NCBI GenBank assembly: GCA_031441465.1
Contig: JANOEP010000055.1
Location: 1-31,655, forward strand
Reading direction: 5' to 3'
DNA: 31,655 nucleotides
Source of the DNA: a bacterium
Lineage (GTDB): Bacteria > Krumholzibacteriota > Krumholzibacteriia > LZORAL124-64-63
Positions 3,760 through 21,395 of this stretch are shown one piece after another (positions within the stretch are counted from its first letter, which is position 1; each line of letters begins with the position of its first letter). The notes under the pieces were generated by a model that saw nothing but the letters and a program-made list of their open reading frames with translations, ran no database searches and was not told the origin of the DNA. The translations under genes were made by a program, and so were the position numbers.

Positions 3760-3894
3760 GGAAAGCCGGTAGATTCCAACCAGGCGCCATGATCATAACT
3801 TGATGTATTATATAATGTTACCAATTAATGACGGGATGTCCGCCCGGTTACCGACGTCGGGGTGTGAAATTCCGATACAGCAATCCGTCACAGA

Positions 3895-4248
3895 TCAATC
3901 AACAGCCTCGAAGTCATCCAGCAGCGATTTGCACTCCTGGCGGAGGATCGGAACATCTCGATCCGCGATCGCCCACACGATCGAGTCGACGACGTTGGGA
4001 TACTCATGCGTCAACTGGTTCCTGAAATCGATGATCCGTCGTGCGTGGCCGATCTCATCAAACAGCCCGGGGTCCCTGTGCGACAGTGCTGAAATCGCTT
4101 CACCGATGATGATGAACTCACGCTCTACCGATGAACGAACGAGCCGGTTGCCCAAATAGGACTCGAGATCCAGACCCGAAATGGCTGCTGTGATCGCCTC
4201 GCAGGCATCGATGATATCCGCCAGGTACGCGCGCGCATCACGCGGCAT
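3895..4248 (-). CDS. HepT-like (DUF86) HEPN ribonuclease toxin
   Basis: HEPN R-x4-H motif FRNQLTHEY; VEREFIIIGEA; overlaps the upstream MNT gene. Confidence 0.92.
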   Translation of the reverse strand: MPRDARAYLADIIDACEAITAAISGLDLESYLGNRLVRSSVEREFIIIGEAISALSHRDPGLFDEIGHARRIIDFRNQLTHEYPNVVDSIVWAIADRDVPILRQECKSLLDDFEAVD

Positions 4249-4546
4249 AGAATTCCTGTTTCGTTCGTTCGATATCCGCCGCGATGAACCGGTTCTTCAC
4301 GGCTCCCGCCACCACCAGATCGATCTCGAATCCAAGCAGGGTGCGGATTTCGCTCAGAAGTCCGAAATAGGCGTCAGCCAGTTCATAGGGATCCATCGGT
4401 CGGAATTCGACGAGTAAATCGAGGTCGCTCTGTGCGGGTCGAAAATCGTCACGGAGGGCAGAGCCGAAGACATCGAGGCGCGACACGCCGAAGCGGTTGC
4501 ACAGTTCGAAGAGTGCCGTGCGTTTCTTTTCGAGCAGATGAACCAT
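4238..4546 (-). CDS. MntA-like minimal nucleotidyltransferase antitoxin
   Basis: FGSALRDDFRPAQSDLDLLVEF (GS-x10-DxD). ATG at 4546 with RBS GGAGG. Confidence 0.92.
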   Translation of the reverse strand: MVHLLEKKRTALFELCNRFGVSRLDVFGSALRDDFRPAQSDLDLLVEFRPMDPYELADAYFGLLSEIRTLLGFEIDLVVAGAVKNRFIAADIERTKQEFYAA

Positions 4547-4563
4547 GATACGCCTCCAGCACA

Positions 4564-4592
4564 ATTGTACCCGCACCCGTCACAATGCGCAA
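4564..4592 (-). promoter_or_regulatory. Candidate sigma70 promoter of the TA operon
   Basis: Minus strand TTGCGC-17 nt-TACAAT immediately upstream of the antitoxin RBS. Confidence 0.55.
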
Positions 4593-4630
4593 CTACGGGC
4601 AAATCGTCTTAAATAGCAGACGATCCGGGT

Positions 4631-5599
4631 TCAGATGACATCCAACCGCTCCCCCCGCCGCAGCCGCCCCCGCAACTCCATCAGCCGCGCGTCCAGCGCC
4701 CGCAGCTCCACGAGGTTGGCGCGCTCGGCGTCGCTGGGCTCGACCACGGCGCGCATGGCGCCGCCGCCGATGATCACGCGGCGGTCGCCCATCAGGGCGA
4801 GGATCGGGTCGTGGGTGGCCATGAGCACGATCTTGTCCTGGCCGACGAGCACTTCGAGGGCCTTGCGGCGGTCGATGCCCGCGTTCTCGATCTCGTCGAT
4901 CAGCACCACCGGCGAGTGCGATAGCACGGCCGTGTCGGCGATCATCAGCGCGCGGGACTGGCCGCCCGAGAGGCTGGTGACCGGGGTGTCCAGCGCGAAG
5001 GGCTCGCCCGCCAGCGCGTTGGCCTCCCGCCAGATGCGGTCCACCTTGGCGGGGATGTCGTCGGCGCGGCGGCTCTCGGCGTGCAGGGCCAGGAAGTCGC
5101 CCACGCCCATGTCGATGACGAAGTTCATGTTCTGGCTGAGCTGGGCGACGAGCTTGCGGTCGCCGCCGGCGCGCCAGCGCTCGTCCCCCTCGCGGCCGTC
5201 GACCAGGACGTGCCGGCCGGTCGGCGTGTCGCCGCGGGCCACCCACTCGATGTCCGCGAGCAGGCGGCTCTTGCCCGAGCCGGTCGGCCCCACGATGCAG
5301 ACGACGTCGCCCTTGCTCACGACGAGTTCGCGCACCGGTTCCGGCTCGCCGCGCTTGTCGCGGCCGCCGAGGATCGTGATCGCGCCGACGGTCTCCTCCT
5401 CGCCGGACAGGAAGGACTCCATCTCGGTCAGGAAGACCGCGAGGTCCGCCAGCAGCGCCTCGCCGCAGCAGTCGGCCAGCGGCACCGCGGGCGCCTCGGG
5501 CAGCTCCACGCCGCGCTCGCCCAGGAAACCCTCGGCGTAGGGCCACTGCGCGCGCAGGCTGCCCGTGGTCAAGCCGCGCAGCAGGTCGAGGTGGACCAT
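4631..5599 (-). CDS. ABC-type ATPase with an N-terminal extension; no permease nearby
   Basis: Walker A GPTGSGKS, signature LSGGQ, Walker B VLIDEIE, H-loop THD. Start overlaps the GTPase stop (ATG 5599 or GTG 5602). Confidence 0.88.
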   Translation of the reverse strand: MVHLDLLRGLTTGSLRAQWPYAEGFLGERGVELPEAPAVPLADCCGEALLADLAVFLTEMESFLSGEEETVGAITILGGRDKRGEPEPVRELVVSKGDVVCIVGPTGSGKSRLLADIEWVARGDTPTGRHVLVDGREGDERWRAGGDRKLVAQLSQNMNFVIDMGVGDFLALHAESRRADDIPAKVDRIWREANALAGEPFALDTPVTSLSGGQSRALMIADTAVLSHSPVVLIDEIENAGIDRRKALEVLVGQDKIVLMATHDPILALMGDRRVIIGGGAMRAVVEPSDAERANLVELRALDARLMELRGRLRRGERLDVI

Positions 5600-6372
5600 C
5601 ACGCCCCCTCCCCGCCGCTCAGCGGCGCGCCGCGCTGGCGCTCGGCGTCGACTTCGAGGTTCGCGGCGGCGGCGCCGAGGTCGATCTTGCGCACGTTGCC
5701 GAGCTGGTACTGCGCACCGATGCGCGTCTCGCCCAAGCAGTAGCTGCACAGCGCCGCGGGCATGCTGAAGCGCAGGCGGCGGCCCTCGACGGTGTCCACT
5801 TCCTGCCCCTCGCGCCACAGCGAGGCGAACTCGAAGCTGCCCTGGCCGGTGACGCCGTTGACGTTTAGGATGCGCGCCTTGGGGTTGACGCGCCGCACGC
5901 GGGCGGCGAAGACCTCGCGCTCTGCCTGGCTGACCACGTCCCCCTTGGTGATCACCACGATGTCGGCGGACTTGAGCATCGGGCCGATCTTCTGCGGCGT
6001 GTCGATGCCCGAAAGGTTGTCGATGACGCAGACCGCCAGCACGTCGCGGATGTAGGGCGAGCAGCGGTTGCACAGGCCGGCGCTCTCGCTCACCAGCACG
6101 TCCAGCCCCTCGCCGCGGCCCCACTGCACACACTCCTCGACGTTGCTGACGAAGTAGTGGTCCGGGCAGAGCGCGCCGGACAGGCCCTTGCGCACCGGCA
6201 GGCCGTGGCGCGCGTAGGTCTCGTCGTCCTGGGTGCTGAGGCAGTCGAACTTCACCACGCCCACGCGCAGGCCGGGTCCGTGCGGGCCGTCCTGGCGCAC
6301 GTGGGCGATGGTCTTGAGGATCACCGCCGTCTTGCCCGACGACGGCGGCCCACTCACGGTCACGAACCTCAT
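5599..6372 (-). CDS. HypB/UreG/CobW-like (G3E) metal-binding GTPase
   Basis: ATG 6372 in an ATGA overlap. GPPSSGKT, LCPDH, ESAGLCNRC, G4 TKGD, C-terminal CSYC. Confidence 0.88.
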   Translation of the reverse strand: MRFVTVSGPPSSGKTAVILKTIAHVRQDGPHGPGLRVGVVKFDCLSTQDDETYARHGLPVRKGLSGALCPDHYFVSNVEECVQWGRGEGLDVLVSESAGLCNRCSPYIRDVLAVCVIDNLSGIDTPQKIGPMLKSADIVVITKGDVVSQAEREVFAARVRRVNPKARILNVNGVTGQGSFEFASLWREGQEVDTVEGRRLRFSMPAALCSYCLGETRIGAQYQLGNVRKIDLGAAAANLEVDAERQRGAPLSGGEGA

Positions 6373-7622
6373 GCCGCGCCTCCGGTCTCGCCGCGGAACA
6401 GGGCGGTCAGCCGCGGGATCAGCTCGCCGAGATCGTACTCGCGGATCGTGTCCCAGCCCAGCCACTGCCAGGTGGCGCCGGCCGGCAGCTCGTTGGTCAC
6501 CTCGGGCAGCAGCGACGGGAACAGCCCGCGGTGGCTGAGGATCTCGCCAGTCGCCCGCGAGAAGAAGAAGTCGGCCAGGTCGCGCGCCGCCGGCGGCGCG
6601 TCGCGGCGCTCGAGCAGGAAGATCGGGCTGATCACCGCGCCGTCGCTGGGCCACACCACCTCGACGCCGGGGTTCAGACGGGCCATGCGCGAGAAGAAAT
6701 AGGGGATGACCGACACCAGCGGCGCCTCGCCGCGGCCCGCCTTGAAGCGGCCGGCGGCCTGGCTCGGGTGCTGCGAGCGCAGCAGGCTGCGCGCCAGGGC
6801 GCGCACCCCCTCGTCGCCGTGACGCTTCCACGTCGTCAGCAGGATGCCGTTGAAGAGATCGAAGTCGCCCACCGGCAGCGCCACGCGCCGCTCCAGGCGC
6901 GGCGAGAGCACGTCCGCCCAGGAGCGCGGGATCTCCTCGCCCTCGGCCAGCTGCGCCTTGTCGACCAGGAACACCGCCGCCACCACGGCGATCATCGCGT
7001 AGTGGCCGTCGGGGTCCTTCAGGTCCAGGCCGGCGAAGTCGGCGTTCACCTGCTGCGGCGAACGGTCGACGAACACGCCCCGGTCCTTGAAGCGGGCCAG
7101 GTTGCGGCGGTCGAAGAAGGCCTCGAAACCGGCCGAGACGAAGACGTGCGGCAGGTCGTCCTCGCCGTGCAGGTTGGCCATCTCCCGTTGCACGGCGTCC
7201 ATGCCGATGCTCGCGGCGGCCAGGCGATGCCCGACGGTCACGCCGTGCTTGCGCTCGACCTCGAGGCGGGCGAGGTCGAAGGCCTCCAGCAGCGGCAGGC
7301 GCACCGGGCAGGGCACCAGGCCGGCCACGCGCACGTCGCCCGAGTCGGGGAAGATGCGGCCGTCGTCGGCGGACTGCAGGGTCAAATCCACGCTCTGCCG
7401 CTCGGCCGTGACCACGCCGCCGAGGGTGGCCAGGAGCGCCGCGAGGTCCTTGCCGCGCATCTGCGCGGCCTGCGACAACGTCACCATCTTGCCGTGGGAG
7501 GCGCGGCGGGCCGGGTCGGCGACATGGCTGAAACCCTGGTCCACCAGGACCGGGATCGTCTCGGGGTAACGCTCGGTGACCTCGAAGAGGGTCATTTCCG
7601 GGGTGATCTGGATGGGGGGCAC
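6369..7622 (-). CDS. DUF1858-like domain fused to a periplasmic-binding-fold protein, no signal peptide
   Basis: GTG at 7622 with RBS AGGAGG (alternative ATG at 7655). N-terminus ITPEMTLFEVTERYPETIPVLVDQGF is DUF1858-like; PCPVR motif; PRSWADVL and VVWPSDGA are typical of Fe3+/polyamine-type solute-binding proteins. Confidence 0.8.
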   Translation of the reverse strand: MPPIQITPEMTLFEVTERYPETIPVLVDQGFSHVADPARRASHGKMVTLSQAAQMRGKDLAALLATLGGVVTAERQSVDLTLQSADDGRIFPDSGDVRVAGLVPCPVRLPLLEAFDLARLEVERKHGVTVGHRLAAASIGMDAVQREMANLHGEDDLPHVFVSAGFEAFFDRRNLARFKDRGVFVDRSPQQVNADFAGLDLKDPDGHYAMIAVVAAVFLVDKAQLAEGEEIPRSWADVLSPRLERRVALPVGDFDLFNGILLTTWKRHGDEGVRALARSLLRSQHPSQAAGRFKAGRGEAPLVSVIPYFFSRMARLNPGVEVVWPSDGAVISPIFLLERRDAPPAARDLADFFFSRATGEILSHRGLFPSLLPEVTNELPAGATWQWLGWDTIREYDLGELIPRLTALFRGETGGAA

Positions 7623-7642
7623 GGGAGCCTCCTGGTTGGGGC

Positions 7643-7668
7643 TATTCAATACCATGTGGTATAGAATA
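7643..7668. promoter_or_regulatory. 26-bp palindromic operator candidate
   Basis: TATTC-A-ATACCA-TG-TGGTAT-A-GAATA, AT-rich in a very GC-rich background, about 20 bp upstream of the GTG at 7622. Confidence 0.7.
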
Positions 7669-7748
7669 TCGCTCCTCGCCCGCCGCCCCGCAAGTCGCTA
7701 TATTCGCCCCGCCCGAACGACCTCAGCCCCCATCCCGGGAGGACCTCC

Positions 7749-9824
<2,076 letters not shown>

Positions 9825-10720: not shown

Positions 10721-11806
10721 TCAGGCCCCGGCCACCGGCGGGGCACGGTCCGCCGCGAAGACGCGCAAGCGCCGCGGCGTGACGTGGACCTCGGAACCGG
10801 CCGCCAACCCGAGCTGCTCCAGGGTTTCCTGGGGCAGCTCCGCGTTCAGCAGCGCGCCGTCGGCCGTCTGCAGCTCCAGCCGCACGACCGGCCCCGCGCT
10901 CTGCACCCGCTTCACGACCGCCCGGATGGCCGCCTGCGTCGGCGGCGTCAGCGACACCTCCCACTCGTGCGGTCGCACGAACACCCGCGCCGGCCCGTCC
11001 TGACGGCCGAGGTCGCCGGCGTCCAGCTCGACGTCCGCGAACGCGACGCGGCCCGCGTCCACCCGGCCGTGGAACTGGTTCACCTCGCCCAGGAAGCGCA
11101 TGACGAATTCCGTGGCGGGGTGGTGGAAGACCTCGTCGGGCGTCCCCTCCTGCTCGATGCGCCCCTCGTTCATCACCACGACCCGGTCGGCGACCTCGAG
11201 CGCCTCGTCCTGGTCGTGGGTGACGAAGACGCTGGTCACGTGCAGCTTGTCGTGGAGGCGACGCAGCCAGACGCGCAGCTCCTTGCGCACCTTCGCGTCC
11301 AGGGCGCCGAAGGGCTCGTCCAGCAGCAGGACCTGCGGTTCGACCGCCAGGGCGCGCGCCAGGGCCACGCGCTGGCGCTGGCCGCCGGAGAGCTGGCCCG
11401 GGTAGCGGTCGGCCAGCGTGTCGAGCTGCACCATCCGCAGCAGGTCGCCGACCCGCGCGCGGATCTCCGCCTTGTCCGGCCGCTCCCGCCGCGGGCGCAC
11501 CTGCAGGCCGAAGGCCACGTTGTCGAACACGGTGAGGTGGCGGAACAGGGCGTAGTGCTGGAACACGAAGCCCACGCCGCGGCGCCGCACCGCCCGCTCC
11601 GCCACGTCGGCGTCGTTGAACAGGACCTGGCCGCTGCCGCGGTCCGCCTGCTCCAGGCCGGCGATGATGCGCAGCAGCGTGGTCTTGCCCGAGCCCGACG
11701 GGCCGAGCAGGGCCATCAACCGGCCGGTGGGCACCGTCAGGCTGACATCGTCGAGGGCGCGGAAGGCGCCGAAGGACTTGGTGATGTGCCGGGCCTCGAT
11801 GCTCAT
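10721..11806 (-). CDS. cysA: Sulfate/thiosulfate ABC transporter ATP-binding protein
   Basis: [48 protein letters not shown]-terminal TOBE-like region. Confidence 0.96.
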
Positions 11807-12699
11807 GGCGCCTCACGGGGCTGGAGTTCTGCGGCGACCTCGGCCGTCGAGGCGCCGGCCCGCCTCTCGACCACCGCTTTCGCGACCAGGGTCGCGAGCG
11901 CCAGCATCGCCAGCAGCGAGGCCACGGCGAACGCGGCGACGTAGTTGTACTCGTTGTACAGGATCTCGACCTGCAGCGGCAAGGTCGCGGTCTTGCCGCG
12001 GATGTGGCCGCTGACCACCGACACGGCGCCGAACTCGCCCATGGCGCGGGCGTTGCAGAGGATCACGCCGTACAGCAGCGCCCACCGCACGTTCGGCAGG
12101 GTGACGCGCCGGAAGGTCTGCCAGCCGCTCGCGCCGAGCGTCATCGCCGCCTGCTCCTCCTCGGTGCCCTGCTCCTCCATCAGCGGGATCAGCTCGCGGG
12201 CGACGAAGGGGAAGGTCACGAAGATCGTCGCCAGCACGATGCCGGGCACCGCGAAGATCACCTGCAGGTCGTGGGCGACCAGCCAGGGACCGAACACGCC
12301 GTTGGCGCCGTAGATCATGATGTAGACCAGGCCGCTGACGACCGGCGAGACGGCGTACGGCAGGTCGATCAGGGTGATGAGCAGCCGCTTGCCGGGGAAG
12401 GCGAACTTGGCGATCGCCCAGGAGGCGGACAGGCCGAAGAAGATGTTCACGGGCACCGCGATCGCGGCGACCAGCAGGGTCAGCCGGATCGCCGCCTGCG
12501 CCTCGGCGTCGCGGAAGCTGGCGAGGTAGGCGCCGAGGCCCTGCCGCAGCGCCTCGGCGAAAACCGAGATCAGGGGCAGCACCAGCACGCACCCCAGCAC
12601 CAGCAGCGTGGCGGCGATCAGCAGGCGGCGCACCGGCGCGGGTTCCCCCACGCCCGGACGGGGCCTCGTCGTCGTGTGCCGCTTGCCGCCGTCGGCCAT
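11803..12699 (-). CDS. cysW: Sulfate ABC transporter permease CysW
   Basis: [49 protein letters not shown]. Confidence 0.96.
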
Positions 12700-12700
12700 C

Positions 12701-13543
12701 TCAGTTCCCCTCGCGGTAGCGGCCCGTCCAGCCCTGCAGCAGGTTGACCGCCAGCAGGATCACGAACGACAGCACCAGCATGACGGCCCCGATCGCGGTC
12801 GCGCCGGCGTAGTCGTACTGCTCGAGCTTCGCGACGATCAGCAGCGGCACGATCTCGGTCTTGTTGGGCATGTTGCCCGAGATGAACACGACCGACCCGT
12901 ACTCCCCGACCGCGCGGGCGAAGGCCAGCGTGGTGCCGGTCAGCAGGGCCGGCAGGACGGTCGGCACGATGACCCTGCTCAGGATCTGCAGCCGCCCCGC
13001 CCCCAGGACCGCCGCGGCTTCCTCGACTTCGGCGTCGAGGTCCATCAGCGCCGGCTGCAGCGTGCGCACGACGAAGGGCAGCCCGATGAACACCAGCGCG
13101 ACCGTCACGCCCAGCGGCGTGAACGCCACCGGCAGGCCCAGCGGCACGAGCAGGCGGCCGACCCAGCCCTGGGGCGCGAACAGGGCCGTCAGGGCGATGC
13201 CCGAGACGGCCGTCGGCAGGGCGAAGGGCAGGTCGACCAGGGCGTCGATCACCCGCTTGCCGGGGAATTCGTAGCGCACCAGGGTCCAGGCGACGAGAAA
13301 ACCGATGACCGCGTTGATCGCCGCCGCGATCAGCGACGCCCCGAAGCTGAGCCGGAACGCGGCCAGCACCCGGGGCGTGGTGACCGTCTCCCACACTCCG
13401 CCGAAACCCAGCCCGGCCGAGCGCACGAACAGGCCCGCCAGCGGGATCACGACGACCACGCTGACCATGAACACGGTGATCCCGAGCGTCGGGCCGAACC
13501 CGGGCAGCACGCCGACGCGGCGCCTGGTTCGGCCCGCCTTCAC
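12701..13543 (-). CDS. cysT: Sulfate ABC transporter permease CysT
   Basis: VLPGFG, DALVDLPFALPTAVSGIAL, FARAVGEYGSVVFISGNMP. Confidence 0.96.
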   Translation of the reverse strand: MKAGRTRRRVGVLPGFGPTLGITVFMVSVVVVIPLAGLFVRSAGLGFGGVWETVTTPRVLAAFRLSFGASLIAAAINAVIGFLVAWTLVRYEFPGKRVIDALVDLPFALPTAVSGIALTALFAPQGWVGRLLVPLGLPVAFTPLGVTVALVFIGLPFVVRTLQPALMDLDAEVEEAAAVLGAGRLQILSRVIVPTVLPALLTGTTLAFARAVGEYGSVVFISGNMPNKTEIVPLLIVAKLEQYDYAGATAIGAVMLVLSFVILLAVNLLQGWTGRYREGN

Positions 13544-13562
13544 GCCGGCTCCGACTGCGGGC

Positions 13563-14642
13563 TCACTGGCCGCCCGCCGTGATCTGGTCGAAGACGCCGC
13601 CGTCGTCGAAGTGGCGCCGCTGCGCCTGCTGCCAACCGCCGAAGACCTCGTCGACGGTGACCAGGGTCAGGGCGGGGAAACGGGCCAAGTCCGCCGGATC
13701 CGCGTGCTCGGGCGACACGGGCCGGTAGTAGTGGCGGGCCACGAGGCGCTGGCCCTGCGGCGAGTAGAGGAATTCCAGGTACGCCTGCGCGACCTCGAGC
13801 GTCCCGTGCTCGCGGGCCCAGTGGTCCACGACCGTCACCGGCGGTTCGGCGAGGATGCTGACCGTGGGCACGACGATCTCGAACTCGCCGACGCCCAGCT
13901 CGGTGACGGCCAGGAAGGCCTCGTTCTCCCAGGCCAGCAGCACGTCGCCGATCCCGTTGCGGGCGAAGGTGTTGGTCGAGCCGCGGGCGCCGGAGTCGAG
14001 CACCGGCACGCGCTTGAACAGTTCGGTCACGAAGGCCCGCGCCGCCGCTTCGGCCGCCTTGACCTCGGCGGCGGCCGCCGGGTCGTGCAGCTTGGCCAGG
14101 TCGCCGAGTTCGCGGCGCAGGACGTGGGACCAGGCTGCCAGGTAGTTCCAGCGCGCGCCGCCGGAAGTCTTCGGGTTCGGCGTCACGATCGCGACGCCCG
14201 GCTTCAACAGGTCGTCCCAGTCGCGGATGTGCTTGGGATTACCCTTGCGCACCAGGAAGACGATCGTCGAGGTGTAGGGAGAGGAGTTGTGCGGCAGGCG
14301 CTGCTGCCAGTCCGCGGGCAGGTAGCTGGTGTGCTTCGCGATCGCGTCGATGTCGTAGGCCAGGGCGAGGGTGACGACGTCGGCCTGCAGGCCGTCGATC
14401 ACCGCACGGGCCTGCTTCCCGGCCCCGCCGTGGGACTGGTGCACGGTCACGGCCTGCCCGGTCTTGGCGAGCCAGTGCGCGGCGAAGGCCTCGTTGACAT
14501 CGCGGTAGAGTTCGCGCGTGGGATCGTAGGAGACGTTCAGCAGCTCGACCGATTTCGGGGTTGCGCGGGCCGCGCCAGAAAGAGCGACCGCCAGGGCGGC
14601 CAGCACGAGCAAGGCGACAACGGCCAGGATCCGGATCTTCAT
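13563..14642 (-). CDS. sbp: Sulfate-binding periplasmic protein
   Basis: Signal peptide from ATG 14642 (RBS GGAGGG). [43 protein letters not shown]. Confidence 0.95.
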
Positions 14643-14787
14643 GGCAACACCCTCCGGGTCGAAGATCATCGATTAACACATCGGGCACGAGCACATCAAC
14701 AATAATCGTTCTCAAACCATCTTGGATGTTAATTTATTGTTATTCAACACGATAGGCCAAGAGCCCCGCACGGCCGACCCGATTCCT

Positions 14788-17930: not shown

Positions 17931-20129
17931 CTACATGGCGGGTCCGACCTCCAGCACCTCCCAGTGCCGGCGCTCGCTCTCCTCGCCGTATTCCACCTGG
18001 TCGCCGACCCGGGCGCCCATGAACGCCATCGCCAGCGGCGCGCGGTAGGACAGGATGCCCGACTCGGGCAGGGAGTCCCACACGCCCAGGAAGCTGTAGG
18101 TCTCCTCGGTGCCGTTCAAAAGGTCGCGCACGCGCACGCGGGTGCCGACGTTGACGAAGGCCGAGCGCACCATCTCGTCGGTGATGATCTTGGCGCGGGC
18201 CAGCTCGTTCTCCAGACGCGTGGCGCGGCTGGTGATCTGGTCGCGCTTCTCCAGAGCCGCGGTGTACTCCGCGTTCTCGCTCAGGTCGCCGTGGCTCGCG
18301 GCCTCGCCGATCTGGCGGGCGACGGCCGGCAGGTCGACCTGGACCAGCTCGTCCAGCGCCGCCTGACGGTGCTGCAGACCCGACATCGTCGTGTAGTAGA
18401 CGTCCTCTTCCCAGGGCCGCGACATCTCGGCGAAGACCTCGGGGTGGGCGGTGCGCAGCCAGCCCAGCAGGCTGGTGCGGGTGCTGGCGCGGATGCCGCC
18501 GTTGCGCTCGATGCGCTCCTTGAGGACGCGCGCCTCGTCCGGACTGGTGGTCGACAGGTAGATGCGGATCGGCTCGCCGTCGTGCAGCTCGAGCCCCTCC
18601 TGCCCCTGCTCCAGCACGCGGCGCAGACGCTTGTCGTCCGACAGGGCGGTCATGCGGCCGGTCGCGTCCATCAGGTCCAGCAGGGCGTTCATCAGGCGAC
18701 CCACGCCCAGGCCCTTCATCGCGGCCAGCGACTGCCCGGTCTTGGAATCCGCGAACCTGGTCCGCCACAGCCAACCGAGCACCTCCGGCGACGCGGTCGG
18801 GTGGGCCAGCACGCTCTCGAGGGCCGAGACCAGGACGGGCTCCTGGCCGGCGGCGAGCAGCTCGCGCGCCATCATGTCGGCGGTCATCCGCCCGGTGCGG
18901 GGCAGCACCCGCCCCCAGAAGACGGTCCACTGCTCGGCCGGCAGGATCTTGCGCACGAAGGCCAGCACCAGCTGGAGCAGCCGGTCGCCCAGGTGCGAGG
19001 GCAGCACGGCGGGCTCGTGGATCCGCTTGATCACCTGCGCGGCGGCCCGCGGGTTCACGTCCACGACGTCGCCGCCCAGCTCGACCGCCTCGGCGTGGAG
19101 GGCCAGGCAGGCCAGCGTCAACGCGGCGTCCTTCTCCAGCAGCGGTCCGGCCAGGCGCGCGGCGGCGTTGCCCAGCTCCCCGACCATCTCGCGCGAGACG
19201 GACTTGTCGCGGCGGGCCTCGCCGAGCCTCTCCAGGATGAACTGCAGCCGGGGCGCGGGCTCGGTCAGCCCACGCAACTGCTCGCGCACGCGATCTTCGT
19301 AGGAACTCTCCTGGCGCAGCAGGTGGAAGGTCGGCTGGCCGGTGCCGGTCATCTCGATGCGGGTGGAGGTCTTCAGGACCAGACGGGCCTTCTTCCACCA
19401 GCCCGTCCAGCCGTCCTCGCCGTGGAGCGCGACGTAGTGGGTGCGCAGCTCCCGGTGGGCGAGGGTCCGGTCGCGGGTCGAGGACAGCGCCATGACGACG
19501 AAGGATTCGGGGTCGCCGGCGGCCATCTGCCGCAGCTCGTCGGGCCGGTAGAGCAGCAGGGACGGGAAGTGGTCCGGCGGCAGGACGATCACCTCGGCGA
19601 CACGAGCCCGCTCCAGGACCTCACGCCGCCCGCTGAACGAGACAGTCAGCCGGGTGTGCTCCGCGTCGACCTCTTCGACCATGCCGGGTTCGAGGTGCGA
19701 GCGGTCGCTCAGGAACGAGCCGGGGCGCAGCTGCAGGAAACGGTCCAGCACGGCCAGTCCTTCGGTCAGGGGAATTCCTTCGGCCAGCAGGCGCGACGTC
19801 AGCGTGCCCGCATGCTCGTAATCGGTGTGGAACGAGGGCATCAGCTGCCGCAGCTCGCGCCGCAGCACGGTCGATGCCGGCAGCAGGACGGTGGCCTGAC
19901 GGGCGACGTCGAGCCGGGCGCGACGGCCGCCACGCTGTTCGAAGACATGCAGCAACCCCTGGAGCATGGTGTCGGCCCGCTCCTCCTCGCCCAAGCGCCG
20001 CACCTGCGCGGCCACCCGCAGCAACTCCTCGACCTCGGCTTCGGGCTCATCGAGCGCCTCGCTCCACAGCACCTCGAGGTCGGTGAACTGACGCGAGTTG
20101 GCCAGCTTCTTCAGCTTGATCAGATTCAT
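17931..20129 (-). CDS. greA: GreA/GreB elongation factor with long N-terminal extension
   Basis: C-terminal AASHGDLSENAEYTAA, VGTRV, ILSYRAPLAMAFMG. About 570 aa of N-terminal extension; ATG at 20129. Confidence 0.88.
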   Translation of the reverse strand: MNLIKLKKLANSRQFTDLEVLWSEALDEPEAEVEELLRVAAQVRRLGEEERADTMLQGLLHVFEQRGGRRARLDVARQATVLLPASTVLRRELRQLMPSFHTDYEHAGTLTSRLLAEGIPLTEGLAVLDRFLQLRPGSFLSDRSHLEPGMVEEVDAEHTRLTVSFSGRREVLERARVAEVIVLPPDHFPSLLLYRPDELRQMAAGDPESFVVMALSSTRDRTLAHRELRTHYVALHGEDGWTGWWKKARLVLKTSTRIEMTGTGQPTFHLLRQESSYEDRVREQLRGLTEPAPRLQFILERLGEARRDKSVSREMVGELGNAAARLAGPLLEKDAALTLACLALHAEAVELGGDVVDVNPRAAAQVIKRIHEPAVLPSHLGDRLLQLVLAFVRKILPAEQWTVFWGRVLPRTGRMTADMMARELLAAGQEPVLVSALESVLAHPTASPEVLGWLWRTRFADSKTGQSLAAMKGLGVGRLMNALLDLMDATGRMTALSDDKRLRRVLEQGQEGLELHDGEPIRIYLSTTSPDEARVLKERIERNGGIRASTRTSLLGWLRTAHPEVFAEMSRPWEEDVYYTTMSGLQHRQAALDELVQVDLPAVARQIGEAASHGDLSENAEYTAALEKRDQITSRATRLENELARAKIITDEMVRSAFVNVGTRVRVRDLLNGTEETYSFLGVWDSLPESGILSYRAPLAMAFMGARVGDQVEYGEESERRHWEVLEVGPAM

Positions 20130-20294
20130 GGCGTCCCCGTCTCCGGCGAGCGGACAAAAAATCACCCGCCGTTGTATTGCAGCGGCCGGGCTCGCGCGGT
20201 GTTTTTGAGGTTAACTGTCGGTCTTCAAGATAGCAGATTTAAACGGTTGTGCCGTCGAAAATGTGTCCGGCCCGCTTGATGCCCCGGTCCGAGC

Positions 20295-21395
20295 ATGCAC
20301 ACCATCGATTCGGGCTTCGTCCCGCCTCACTGCCCCAACCCTAACTGCCGCCATCACAGGCAGTTGACGCCCGGCTGGCGCTTCAAGCGCATCGGCTACT
20401 ACCGGCGACACCTCAGCCCGCACCGTATCCAGCGGTTCCTATGCCTCCATTGCCGCCGCTCCTTCAGCACCCAGACCTTTGCCACCTCCTACTGGCTCAA
20501 GCGACCCGACATCCTCCCACAGCTGCTGACCAAGACCACCGGCTGCATGGCCAACCGACAGATCGCCAGGGACCTGCGCGTTGCGCCTTCGACCATCGAC
20601 CGCCAGCTCAGCCGGCTCGGCCGTCACTGCCTGCTCTTCCACACCGAGCGAATGCAGTCTGCCAGGCCGGCCAACCAGTTCGTCATCGACGGCTTCGTCA
20701 CCTTCGAGCAATCCCAGTACTGGCCTTTCCACCACCACCTGGCCGTGGAGAAGGACACCGACTTCCTGGTCTACTTCACCGACAGCGAATTGCGCCGCAG
20801 CGGCCGCATGACCAAGGCGCAGAAGCGCAAGCGCAAGCGATTGGAGGACCTGCACGGTCGTCCCGACCCGAAGGCCGTCTACAAGGACGTGAAGCATCTG
20901 CTGGAAGTGGTCGCCGGCGGGCAGCGGCGGGTGACCGTGCTGAGCGACGACCACCGGGACTACCCTAGAGCGCTAAAGAGGTTGCCTTGCGAGTCGACCC
21001 ACCTGGTGACCTCGAGTCAGGAACGGCGGGACGTGGGCAATCCATTGTTCCCGATCAACTTGGCGGATCTGTTGATCCGCCACAGCAGCTCGAACCACAA
21101 GCGCGAGACGATCGCGTGGTCAAAGCGTCGTCAGTCGAGTGCGGAGCGATTGGCGGTGTTCCTGGTGTGGCGGAACTACATGAAGGGACGGCGGGAGAAG
21201 GAGCGGGGCAGCCAGACGCCGGCTCAGGCGCGCGGGATGTTCGACAGCCGGCTCGAAGTGCGGGATCTGCTGGAGCGGCGATTGTTCGTGAGCCGAAGCA
21301 AGTTACCGGCGCGGTGGGCTGAATACTACTGGCGCACGGTCTGCACGCGGGTGTTGCCGCGGCAGCGGCGGCATGAGTTGAGCTACGCGGTGTGA
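20295..21395 (+). CDS. Putative transposase (Zn ribbon + HTH + RNase H-like domain), IS1-like
   Basis: CPNPNC...QRFLCLHCRRSFS, HTH NRQIARDLRVAPSTIDRQL, FVIDGF, LSDDHRDY, INLADLLIRH...RETIAWSK. Confidence 0.8.
   Translation: MHTIDSGFVPPHCPNPNCRHHRQLTPGWRFKRIGYYRRHLSPHRIQRFLCLHCRRSFSTQTFATSYWLKRPDILPQLLTKTTGCMANRQIARDLRVAPSTIDRQLSRLGRHCLLFHTERMQSARPANQFVIDGFVTFEQSQYWPFHHHLAVEKDTDFLVYFTDSELRRSGRMTKAQKRKRKRLEDLHGRPDPKAVYKDVKHLLEVVAGGQRRVTVLSDDHRDYPRALKRLPCESTHLVTSSQERRDVGNPLFPINLADLLIRHSSSNHKRETIAWSKRRQSSAERLAVFLVWRNYMKGRREKERGSQTPAQARGMFDSRLEVRDLLERRLFVSRSKLPARWAEYYWRTVCTRVLPRQRRHELSYAV

Follow-up and report, generated by a model that had tools for sequence, protein, structure and literature searches.

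The window analysed here is a stretch of 31,655 nt (assembly GCA_031441465.1, contig JANOEP010000055.1, positions 1 to 31,655 of the forward strand) from a bacterium of the Krumholzibacteriota. On its minus strand it carries an operon of three genes, called the trio or the module below, which encode a protein with a binding-protein fold (gene 1), a G3E GTPase (gene 2) and an ATP-binding cassette (ABC) ATPase (gene 3). The trio is a soluble three-protein nucleoside triphosphatase (NTPase) module and not a transporter, since its gene order is conserved, no permease adjoins it and its genes occur as fusions. Its expression is wired to nitrite- or nitric oxide (NO)-responsive control in several phyla. 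The genes and their domains are as follows.

6369-7622, minus strand: gene 1, cytoplasmic binding-protein-fold protein, 417 aa, DUF1858 and SBP_bac_6, G+C at third codon positions (GC3) 0.95
7434-7607, minus strand: DUF1858 helical N-domain of gene 1, PF08984, 57.8 bits against a cut-off of 32.2, residues 17-74 of the 428-aa reading
6438-7334, minus strand: two-lobed periplasmic-binding-protein fold of gene 1, PF13343 at residues 166-406, model strands from residue 108
5599-6372, minus strand: gene 2, Cys-rich G3E GTPase, 257 aa, PF02492
4631-5599, minus strand: gene 3, soluble diverged ABC ATPase, 322 aa, PF00005
5390-5599, minus strand: helical N-terminal extension of the ATPase, about 70 residues, model helices at residues 4-65 with predicted local distance difference test (pLDDT) scores above 90

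Because the window has 72% G+C, long open reading frames (ORFs) by themselves mean little in it. Position-specific frame analysis gives a GC3 of 0.95-0.98 in three successive minus-strand frames over 4631-7655. The longest ORF of gene 1 runs from ATG 7655 to 6369 (428 aa). Its true start is likely GTG 7622, since AGGAGG lies 5 nt before this codon, the relatives are about 415 aa long and ATG 7655 falls within the operator described below. The stop codon of gene 1 and the start codon of gene 2 overlap as ATGA (6369-6372), and those of gene 2 and gene 3 as GTGATG (5597-5602), with GTG 5602 as an alternative start for gene 3. An earlier reading made from the letters of the window (the sequence-only reading) had taken the three genes to be translationally coupled, and the overlaps at both junctions bear this out. 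It had also called the flanking genes unrelated; these are a divergent S9 peptidase gene upstream and a nucleotidyltransferase gene in a lower-GC patch downstream.

Relatives of the trio are numerous. A word-indexed protein search gave 415 relatives of gene 1, and metagenome contigs hold 581. A scan of one genome per species gave 272 loci, and gene order was surveyed in the best 80 of these. The trio is complete and in the same order in 76 of the 80, the remaining four stopping at contig ends, and an order this constant means that the association is not due to chance. Spacing is tight: the gap between gene 1 and gene 2 is -4 to +14 nt in 62/77 loci, and gene 2 and gene 3 overlap in 45/73. The final set used for neighbourhoods has 161 loci, including 80 from metagenomes, with 7-8 kb of flank searched.

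An ABC permease gene adjoins the trio in none of the 74 complete loci (73 and the window). Adjacent same-strand genes with at least four predicted helices occur in 3/74 loci, and these encode one SSF sodium:solute symporter and two Fer4_5 membrane ferredoxins. Within the searched flanks, 24/161 loci contain an ABC permease gene. The importers concerned have an ATPase of their own in 22 of the 24 cases (21 by gene caller and L092 by hand) and an exported binding protein of their own in 20. Homologous loci therefore do not routinely include a permease, and the absence of one, first seen in the window, extends to its relatives. The public names of gene 1 relatives are generic ('ABC transporter substrate-binding protein', 'Fe3+' or 'spermidine/putrescine' binding protein), so the suspicion that such trios are filed in databases as misnamed transporter parts was well founded.

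The module also occurs as gene fusions. The GTPase and the ABC ATPase (cobW and ABC_tran) share one chain of about 505-630 aa in 85/89 longer relatives. Carriers of this fusion are Clostridium beijerinckii, C. saccharoperbutylacetonicum, Anaerocolumna, Lachnospiraceae and Puniceicoccales. The binding-protein fold is joined to the GTPase in at least two longer relatives (P0124 and P0145), and P0208 is probably a further case; P0210 has the GTPase domain alone in the precomputed domain list. These fusions are the strongest evidence in the analysis that the three proteins act jointly. A prediction of the three-chain complex, scored on the GTPase, did not discriminate: its score was barely above that of a control in which chain 1 had been replaced, and nothing about the complex is drawn from it.

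Gene 1 encodes an N-terminal DUF1858 domain followed by SBP_bac_6 (215.9 bits), a combination present in all but one of its 120 best relatives. Both the DUF1858-like domain and the PCPVR motif (residues 115-119) had been noticed by the sequence-only reading. The N-domain lacks cysteine, has a profile match to PDB 2fi0, and scores 19 bits against the related NCBIfam model TIGR03980 (cut-off 44.95). The AlphaFold (AF2) model of the protein has a pLDDT of 86, and the solved folds that it most resembles are those of FbpA, FutA and AfuA, all ferric-binding proteins (Foldseek E 9e-14 to 1e-10), at 13-17% identity and target TM-scores of 0.55-0.68. Gene 1 shares with these proteins the two-lobed class II fold and the SBP_bac_6 family, but it has neither export signal nor permease, and has in addition the DUF1858 domain and a conserved Cys and His in the cleft. 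The iron site of FbpA and FutA is rich in Tyr, with a Tyr pair plus His/Glu or a further Tyr. Cys116 is kept in 133 and His296 in 137 of 138 gene 1 relatives, and Asp264/Asp266/Asn269, which mark the main subtype, in 125. The conserved motifs lie at strand ends and helix starts in the secondary-structure string of the model. With 42-92% identity across phyla, gene 1 exceeds typical binding proteins in conservation by a wide margin.

By a simple hydropathy measure, which is not SignalP, all three proteins lack an export signal and a membrane helix. The strongest 12-residue hydropathy within the first 40 residues has a median of 0.85 over the 138 gene 1 relatives, whereas four exported proteins of the window reach 2.2-3.3. 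Neither a lipobox (0/138) nor a twin-arginine motif (0/138) was found, Gram-positive-type loci included, so that the lack of a signal peptide and lipobox claimed for the window's protein is a trait of all 138. Only one 19-residue stretch of gene 1 (residues 219-237) reaches a hydropathy of 1.69, and it is a buried beta-strand in the model, in keeping with the earlier view that none of the three has a transmembrane helix. PDB sequence searches gave no close solved relative for any of the proteins.

Gene 2 matches PF02492 (cobW/HypB/UreG) with 44.9 bits against a cut-off of 20.7. Its best family matches are HypB and UreG, but the scores (50.1 bits against a cut-off of 121.2 for TIGR00073 HypB, and 25.7 against 204.2 for TIGR00101 UreG) show that it is neither HypB nor UreG proper. 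The G3E motifs GPPSSGKT (P-loop), SESAG and TKGD are invariant among the aligned relatives. The cysteine motifs that had been pointed out earlier are all in place: LCPDH at residues 68-72, CNRC (within ESAGLCNRC) at 101-104 and CSYC at 209-212. Cys69-Pro-Asp-His72 aligns, by profile, with the Cys-Pro-His metal motif of H. pylori UreG (4hi0), and CPDH is invariant in 19 relatives. The GTPase is the best-conserved part of the trio, with 64-80% identity across phyla where gene 1 has 42-69%. Like HypB with HypA and UreG with UreE it belongs to the PF02492 superfamily, but it has extra invariant cysteines (CNRC, CSYC), and its constant partners, to which it is often fused, are an ABC ATPase and a binding-protein fold. 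Partners of this kind were not found in the literature for any described G3E system.

Gene 3 matches ABC_tran (PF00005) from residue 92 onwards, with 47.5 bits against a cut-off of 25. Walker A (GPTGSGKS), Q-loop (LSQNMNF), signature (LSGGQ), Walker B (LIDEIE) and H-loop (ATHD) motifs are invariant in 18 aligned relatives, and gene 3 is above the cut-off of no NCBIfam transporter family. The AF2 model (pLDDT 88) gives a generic Foldseek match to nucleotide-binding-domain folds. The intact motifs and extra N-terminal residues described by the sequence-only reading are thus both real, the latter forming the helical extension listed above. This extension is missing from the GTPase-ATPase fusions, which have a short linker in its place in P0214, the C. 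beijerinckii fusion. The extension aligns in register with the DUF1858 domain of gene 1, but the likeness is weak (hhalign probability 17%), and a Pfam scan of 18 such extensions gave no DUF1858 match. SufC (SufBCD), SmsC and PhnK/PhnL are likewise soluble ABC domains with intact motifs, soluble partners and no membrane domain. SufC powers iron-sulfur (Fe-S) assembly in SufBCD, and PhnK/PhnL belong to the C-P lyase. SmsC2 of M. jannaschii stands at rank 15 among the structural matches of gene 3, but the Foldseek ranks are generic and point to no special likeness to these proteins, and gene 3 has different partners and a helical N-domain of its own.

The trio has a promoter-operator in common with a second operon of the same genome.

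7643-7668, no strand: palindromic operator, 12-2-12 with one mismatch, core ATACCA-N2-TGGTAT, overlapping the transcription start
7665-7693, minus strand: promoter-like elements, -35 TTGCGG at 7688-7693, a 17-nt spacer and -10 GATATT at 7665-7670
C64:36155-38170 (L179 1656-3670): nrfH-nrfA operon, NapC/NirT-family protein and cytochrome c552 nitrite reductase, behind a promoter-operator of the trio type

At up to one mismatch, the operator core occurs at two sites in the 3.49-Mb genome, one before the trio and one at C64:38149. The second site has the same promoter layout, is identical at 11/12 positions over the 12 nt on the -10 side, and directly precedes nrfH-nrfA, which encode a NapC/NirT-family protein and a cytochrome c552. 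This sharing of the window's promoter-operator by the trio and nrfHA is a new finding; in this genus the trio and the ammonifying nitrite reductase therefore appear to be under one repressor. Of the four other genomes of the genus, three keep the trio operator and one has its contig end within the operon. Before nrfH, a related operator is present in G117 and G081, also of this genus, and a weaker one in G137, and the stretch examined from G131 has no such operator before nrfH. Loci of the window's clade mostly share the layout of a cTTGC -35, a GATATT or TAAATT -10 and then the palindrome. A strict sigma-70 consensus scan of 4100-7900 gave no promoter-like site, so the promoter part is taken from this conservation. 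The sole terminator-like site in the same interval (4162-4180) is no better than shuffled sequence. NsrR, treated for S. coelicolor in PMC4432287, has sites of the form 11-1-11, whereas this operator is 12-2-12; no regulator is claimed for it.

In one sub-clade (L017, L020-L022, L026, L028 and L030) the ATACCA-N2-TGGTAT type gives way to another operator, TAAATTGGAYAAAAGGATC with a T-run and GTTGATAA after it, about 60-110 nt before gene 1. This suggests a change of regulator without a change of the module. Rfam at the gathering threshold gave no riboswitch or RNA leader in the whole window or in nine metagenome loci out of the 80. Four environmental RNA libraries contain contigs of 85-99% likeness that account for 24-28 of the operon's 30 bins, and one of 1,556 nt spans 5328-6880 and crosses both gene junctions. 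These contigs are relatives, the libraries may hold DNA and a contig does not equal a transcript, which makes them a weak hint that the operon is expressed.

In other lineages the module is found beside NO defence genes. Neighbours in the flanks were typed by clustering, by tblastn with representative neighbours and by Pfam checks. The prismane-family gene hcp lies in the flanks of 29/161 loci, a flavodiiron protein gene in 5/161 and a Crp/Fnr regulator gene in 8/161, and NO-related neighbours combined (hcp, flavodiiron, Crp/Fnr or DUF1858 protein) occur in 38/161. L113, L137, L138 and L142 have the order trio, Crp/Fnr, hcp on one strand. In L099 the trio is followed by genes for a DUF1858 protein, a DUF438-hemerythrin-PAS protein, a ferredoxin and a flavodiiron protein. 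A TTGAC-N4-(G/A)TCAA palindrome lies about 70 nt before gene 1 in 36/41 Desulfuromonadota-type loci, against a background of 0.014 per 350 nt. The HcpR motif of Desulfuromonas and Geobacter, as given in PMC1274295, matches this TTGAC-N4-GTCAA-type site, and the HcpR regulon described there includes ndh, nrfHA and nar. The gene divergent from the trio in Trichlorobacter thiogenes (L071) is indeed one for NDH-2. The operator shared with nrfHA ties the window's copy to the physiology of the hcp-linked copies.

The DUF1858 domain is a further likeness to this group of proteins. Gene 1 begins with this domain, and the NCBIfam name of the related model TIGR03980, whose cut-off the gene 1 domain does not reach, is 'hybrid cluster protein-associated redox disulfide domain'. 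In the RIC/YtfE (ScdA) proteins, which repair iron centres, the N-domain is related to it. The trio adjoins hcp in the 29 loci given above, and proteins with DUF1858 and hemerythrin domains adjoin it in L099. Gene 1 differs from RIC/YtfE in having no hemerythrin domain, and its DUF1858 has no CxxC.

An additional small gene occurs in some lineages. It encodes a protein of 80 aa directly after the ATPase in 54/161 loci: 39/43 of the Desulfuromonadota/Myxococcota type, 15/80 metagenome loci and 0/38 of the window's clade. The protein starts with MH[D/Q/E]GC and continues with a CxxC...CxxC...CH zinc ribbon. Its commonest Pfam match is HypA (PF01155), in 17/18 members, always below threshold and with a best E of 2.2e-4, a weak likeness that recalls the pairing of HypB with HypA. 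HypA binds nickel at an N-terminal MHE.

The window's genome encodes a molybdopterin oxidoreductase and has two [NiFe]-hydrogenase large-subunit loci; nitrogenase was not found in it. A further G3E paralogue lies about 12 kb from a hydrogenase gene on contig C39. The enzyme content of the genome rules out no candidate metal. The trio is present in 31/61 genomes sampled from the window's family. In 151 genomes of the phylum the GTPase is confined to this family (29/151, a single copy each), which suggests that the trio may be an accessory cassette that spreads horizontally.

The reading that we favour, with a probability of about 0.5, is that the module is a nitrite- or NO-induced chaperone for metal or Fe-S centres, a soluble double-NTPase machine with a ligand holder. 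The cleft of gene 1, with its near-universal Cys and His and its acidic residues, would hold either a metal ion, for which iron is the best candidate, or a small fragment of metal and sulfur. In the HypB/UreG-like GTPase, pairing of two copies would create a Cys/His site at which the metal is taken up or delivered, and the ATPase would serve as an ATP-driven clamp that moves the GTPase copies and the holder together and apart. Because its repressor-type operator is also that of nrfHA, the module would be switched on during nitrite respiration. It would then supply metal to, or re-insert it into, cytoplasmic metal or Fe-S centres damaged by NO derived from nitrite. The ligand, the order of events and the client enzymes in this scheme are inferred. 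The sequence-only reading had proposed the handling of metal, Fe-S or sulfur. This is plausible, if unproven, given the alignment of CPDH with the UreG CPH motif and the ferric-binding fold of gene 1. Sulfur genes were not seen to recur at the loci, apart from one sulfate importer close to the trio in the window; the recurring neighbours, which that reading had not predicted, are those of NO defence and of molybdate transport or nitrogenase.

Several results weigh against this chaperone reading. The prismane-family gene hcp was not found in the window's genome, which is 96.8% complete. Within the family, NrfA-grade matches occur in 7/31 genomes with the trio and 8/30 without it, and Hcp in 3/31 and 6/30, respectively; neither tracks the trio, and the module is therefore independent of either enzyme. 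NrfA is periplasmic and cannot itself be a client. The exact promoter-operator has no real site in 56 genomes of other genera of the family, three hits of the pattern lying inside coding sequence, so the nrfHA link rests on one genus. A bare 12-base core with one mismatch is expected about 0.5 times by chance in the genome, by an estimate from base composition, and it is therefore the identical flank and the promoter position that carry the operator argument. The HcpR/FNR-type site was found in only 1/35 loci of the window's clade and 4/58 metagenome loci, and the 80-aa protein was not found in the window's genome. The likeness of gene 1 to ferric-binding proteins is one of fold, residues having been read only for the conservation of Cys116, His296, Asp264 and Asp266, and the ligand and clients are guesses. 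Molybdate-transport or nitrogenase genes lie in the flanks of 17/161 loci, six of them in the window's clade, which points to a different metal.

This last association is the basis of the main rival, in which gene 1 would hold molybdate or tungstate, or else a thio-derivative bound to its cysteine, and the two NTPases would drive its hand-over to synthesis of the molybdenum cofactor or of the nitrogenase FeMo-cofactor. L081 and L084 have a fused module with 81-82% identity to the C. beijerinckii fusion, flanked by mop-modCBA on one side and nifH-nifI1-nifI2-nifD on the other and with an HTH_17 and PBP_like regulator beside it, and L094 and L086 have nifV, nifX-like, nifE/N-like and AnfO-like genes. 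The six window-clade loci have modABC 3-4 kb from the trio, and the window's genome has its molybdopterin oxidoreductase. FecCD-type importers, found near the module in 11/80 metagenome loci, lie on its strand and beside the same type of regulator in L092 and L107. The residues of gene 1 argue the other way. Asp264/Asp266/Asn269 are kept in 31/31 copies linked to hcp or flavodiiron genes, and in the window's copy, but in only 9/15 copies in a molybdate or nitrogenase context and 3/9 in a Fec context. Subtypes of gene 1 with different ligands may therefore exist, and the molybdenum-linked copies may be a sister subtype for which the rival could hold. A cleft rich in Asp, Cys and His is in general better suited to cations than to oxyanions. 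The importer that neighbours the trio in the window is a two-permease sulfate-type system, not ModABC, with two unrelated genes between. The lack of a detected nitrogenase in the genome, the absence of a riboswitch from the nine loci and the window, and an operator common to nrfHA, which is not a molybdoenzyme, also speak against molybdenum or tungsten, and as an account of the module this role seems rather unlikely.

A nickel role is less probable again. The module would then be a second nickel-insertion system that serves some further nickel enzyme, its GTPase in the role of HypB or UreG, as its best family matches, its CPH-like motif, the HypA-like small partner in the 54 loci and the two [NiFe]-hydrogenase loci of the genome might suggest. 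The scores for HypB and UreG, however, are far under the equivalog cut-offs, the paralogue near the hydrogenase gene on C39 is where the regular HypB would be expected, and the HypA-like partner was not found in this genome. Hydrogenase, urease and CO-dehydrogenase genes are absent from the recurrent flank clusters and from nine fully annotated metagenome loci, although the 161 loci were not searched for them by name. The trio could also be a normal ABC importer with its permease gene at another locus, or could energise or regulate a neighbouring importer as an accessory. Gene 1 is a transporter binding protein in all its public names, permease genes lie in 24 flanks, and in L092 and L107 a FecCD-type importer shares the strand of the module. 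This is very improbable all the same, since 138/138 gene 1 relatives lack an export signal, no permease adjoins the trio in 74 complete loci, most nearby importers are equipped with an ATPase and an exported binding protein of their own, and the ATPase-GTPase fusion has no importer counterpart.

A more specific form of the chaperone reading is offered tentatively, and its details are open to doubt. The trio may represent a new class of double-switch metallochaperones, in which an ABC ATPase dimer would act as a clamp that opens and closes a G3E GTPase dimer, with the intracellular binding protein as a reservoir of metal or metal-sulfur units, and which would rebuild or load iron-based centres destroyed by NO. 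Its inferred clients would be the hybrid cluster of Hcp, other Fe-S enzymes and, in clostridia, nitrogenase cofactors. If true, the module would be a widespread missing component of the anaerobic nitrosative-stress response.

To our knowledge, G3E GTPases are the known nucleotide-driven metal-inserting proteins, of which only four kinds have been worked out: HypB, UreG, MeaB and CobW/ZNG1. The trio GTPase would be a fifth and very strongly conserved kind, partnered with a cytoplasmic ABC ATPase and a binding-protein fold. No study of the trio, experimental work included, was found in the literature, which agrees with the earlier remark that no functional characterisation of such trios was known to its author. 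The module is common, with 272 species-representative relatives, the 581 on metagenome contigs and presence in about half of the family's genomes, and the database label of transporter parts is a systematic annotation error to correct. Working out the module would reveal a new use of ABC ATPases, and could explain how hybrid-cluster, Fe-S or molybdenum enzymes are supplied in anaerobes under nitrite or NO stress. Culturable carriers are Clostridium beijerinckii, Trichlorobacter thiogenes, Desulfuromusa kysingii and Pelovirga terrestris.

Some neighbours of the module in other genomes form patterns of their own. NapH-like membrane polyferredoxins (Fer4_5) are encoded directly beside it in three Myxococcota-type loci (L038, L039 and L043). 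Genes for DUF364/DUF4213, labelled 'putative heavy-metal chelation', for DUF2478 or NTPase_1 and for an S-adenosylmethionine (SAM)-methyltransferase accompany the GTPase-ATPase pair near FecCD-type importers (L107 8726-10720 and L102 3188-4384). No gene 1 relative was found beside the pair in L107, and the two NTPases may therefore work with other adaptors besides gene 1.

The window has several other features outside the trio. A complete sulfate-type ABC importer lies 3 kb from it (10721-14669, minus strand) and consists of an exported binding protein (SBP_bac_11), two permeases (BPD_transp_1) and a CysA-like ATPase that has TOBE domains; modABC holds a similar position in related loci. The lower-GC patch at 3800-4600 (0.62-0.67 against 0.72 overall) lies between an Omp85 gene and the ATPase gene. 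In it, the NTP_transf_2 nucleotidyltransferase ORF (4238-4576, minus strand) overlaps an ORF of 117 aa (3895-4248, minus strand), and the two look like an inserted MNT/HepT-type toxin-antitoxin pair, of which the second ORF is only putative. Further along, a 744-aa protein (17931-20165, minus strand) ends in GreA/GreB N- and C-domains that take up its last 150 or so residues; the roughly 590 residues before them have no Pfam match, making it an unusually long relative of the Gre factors. A Cys/His-rich ORF of 366 aa without a Pfam match (20295-21395, plus strand) lies in a GC dip (0.63), with a strong change in GC skew around it at 20-22 kb, and may be a mobile-element gene.

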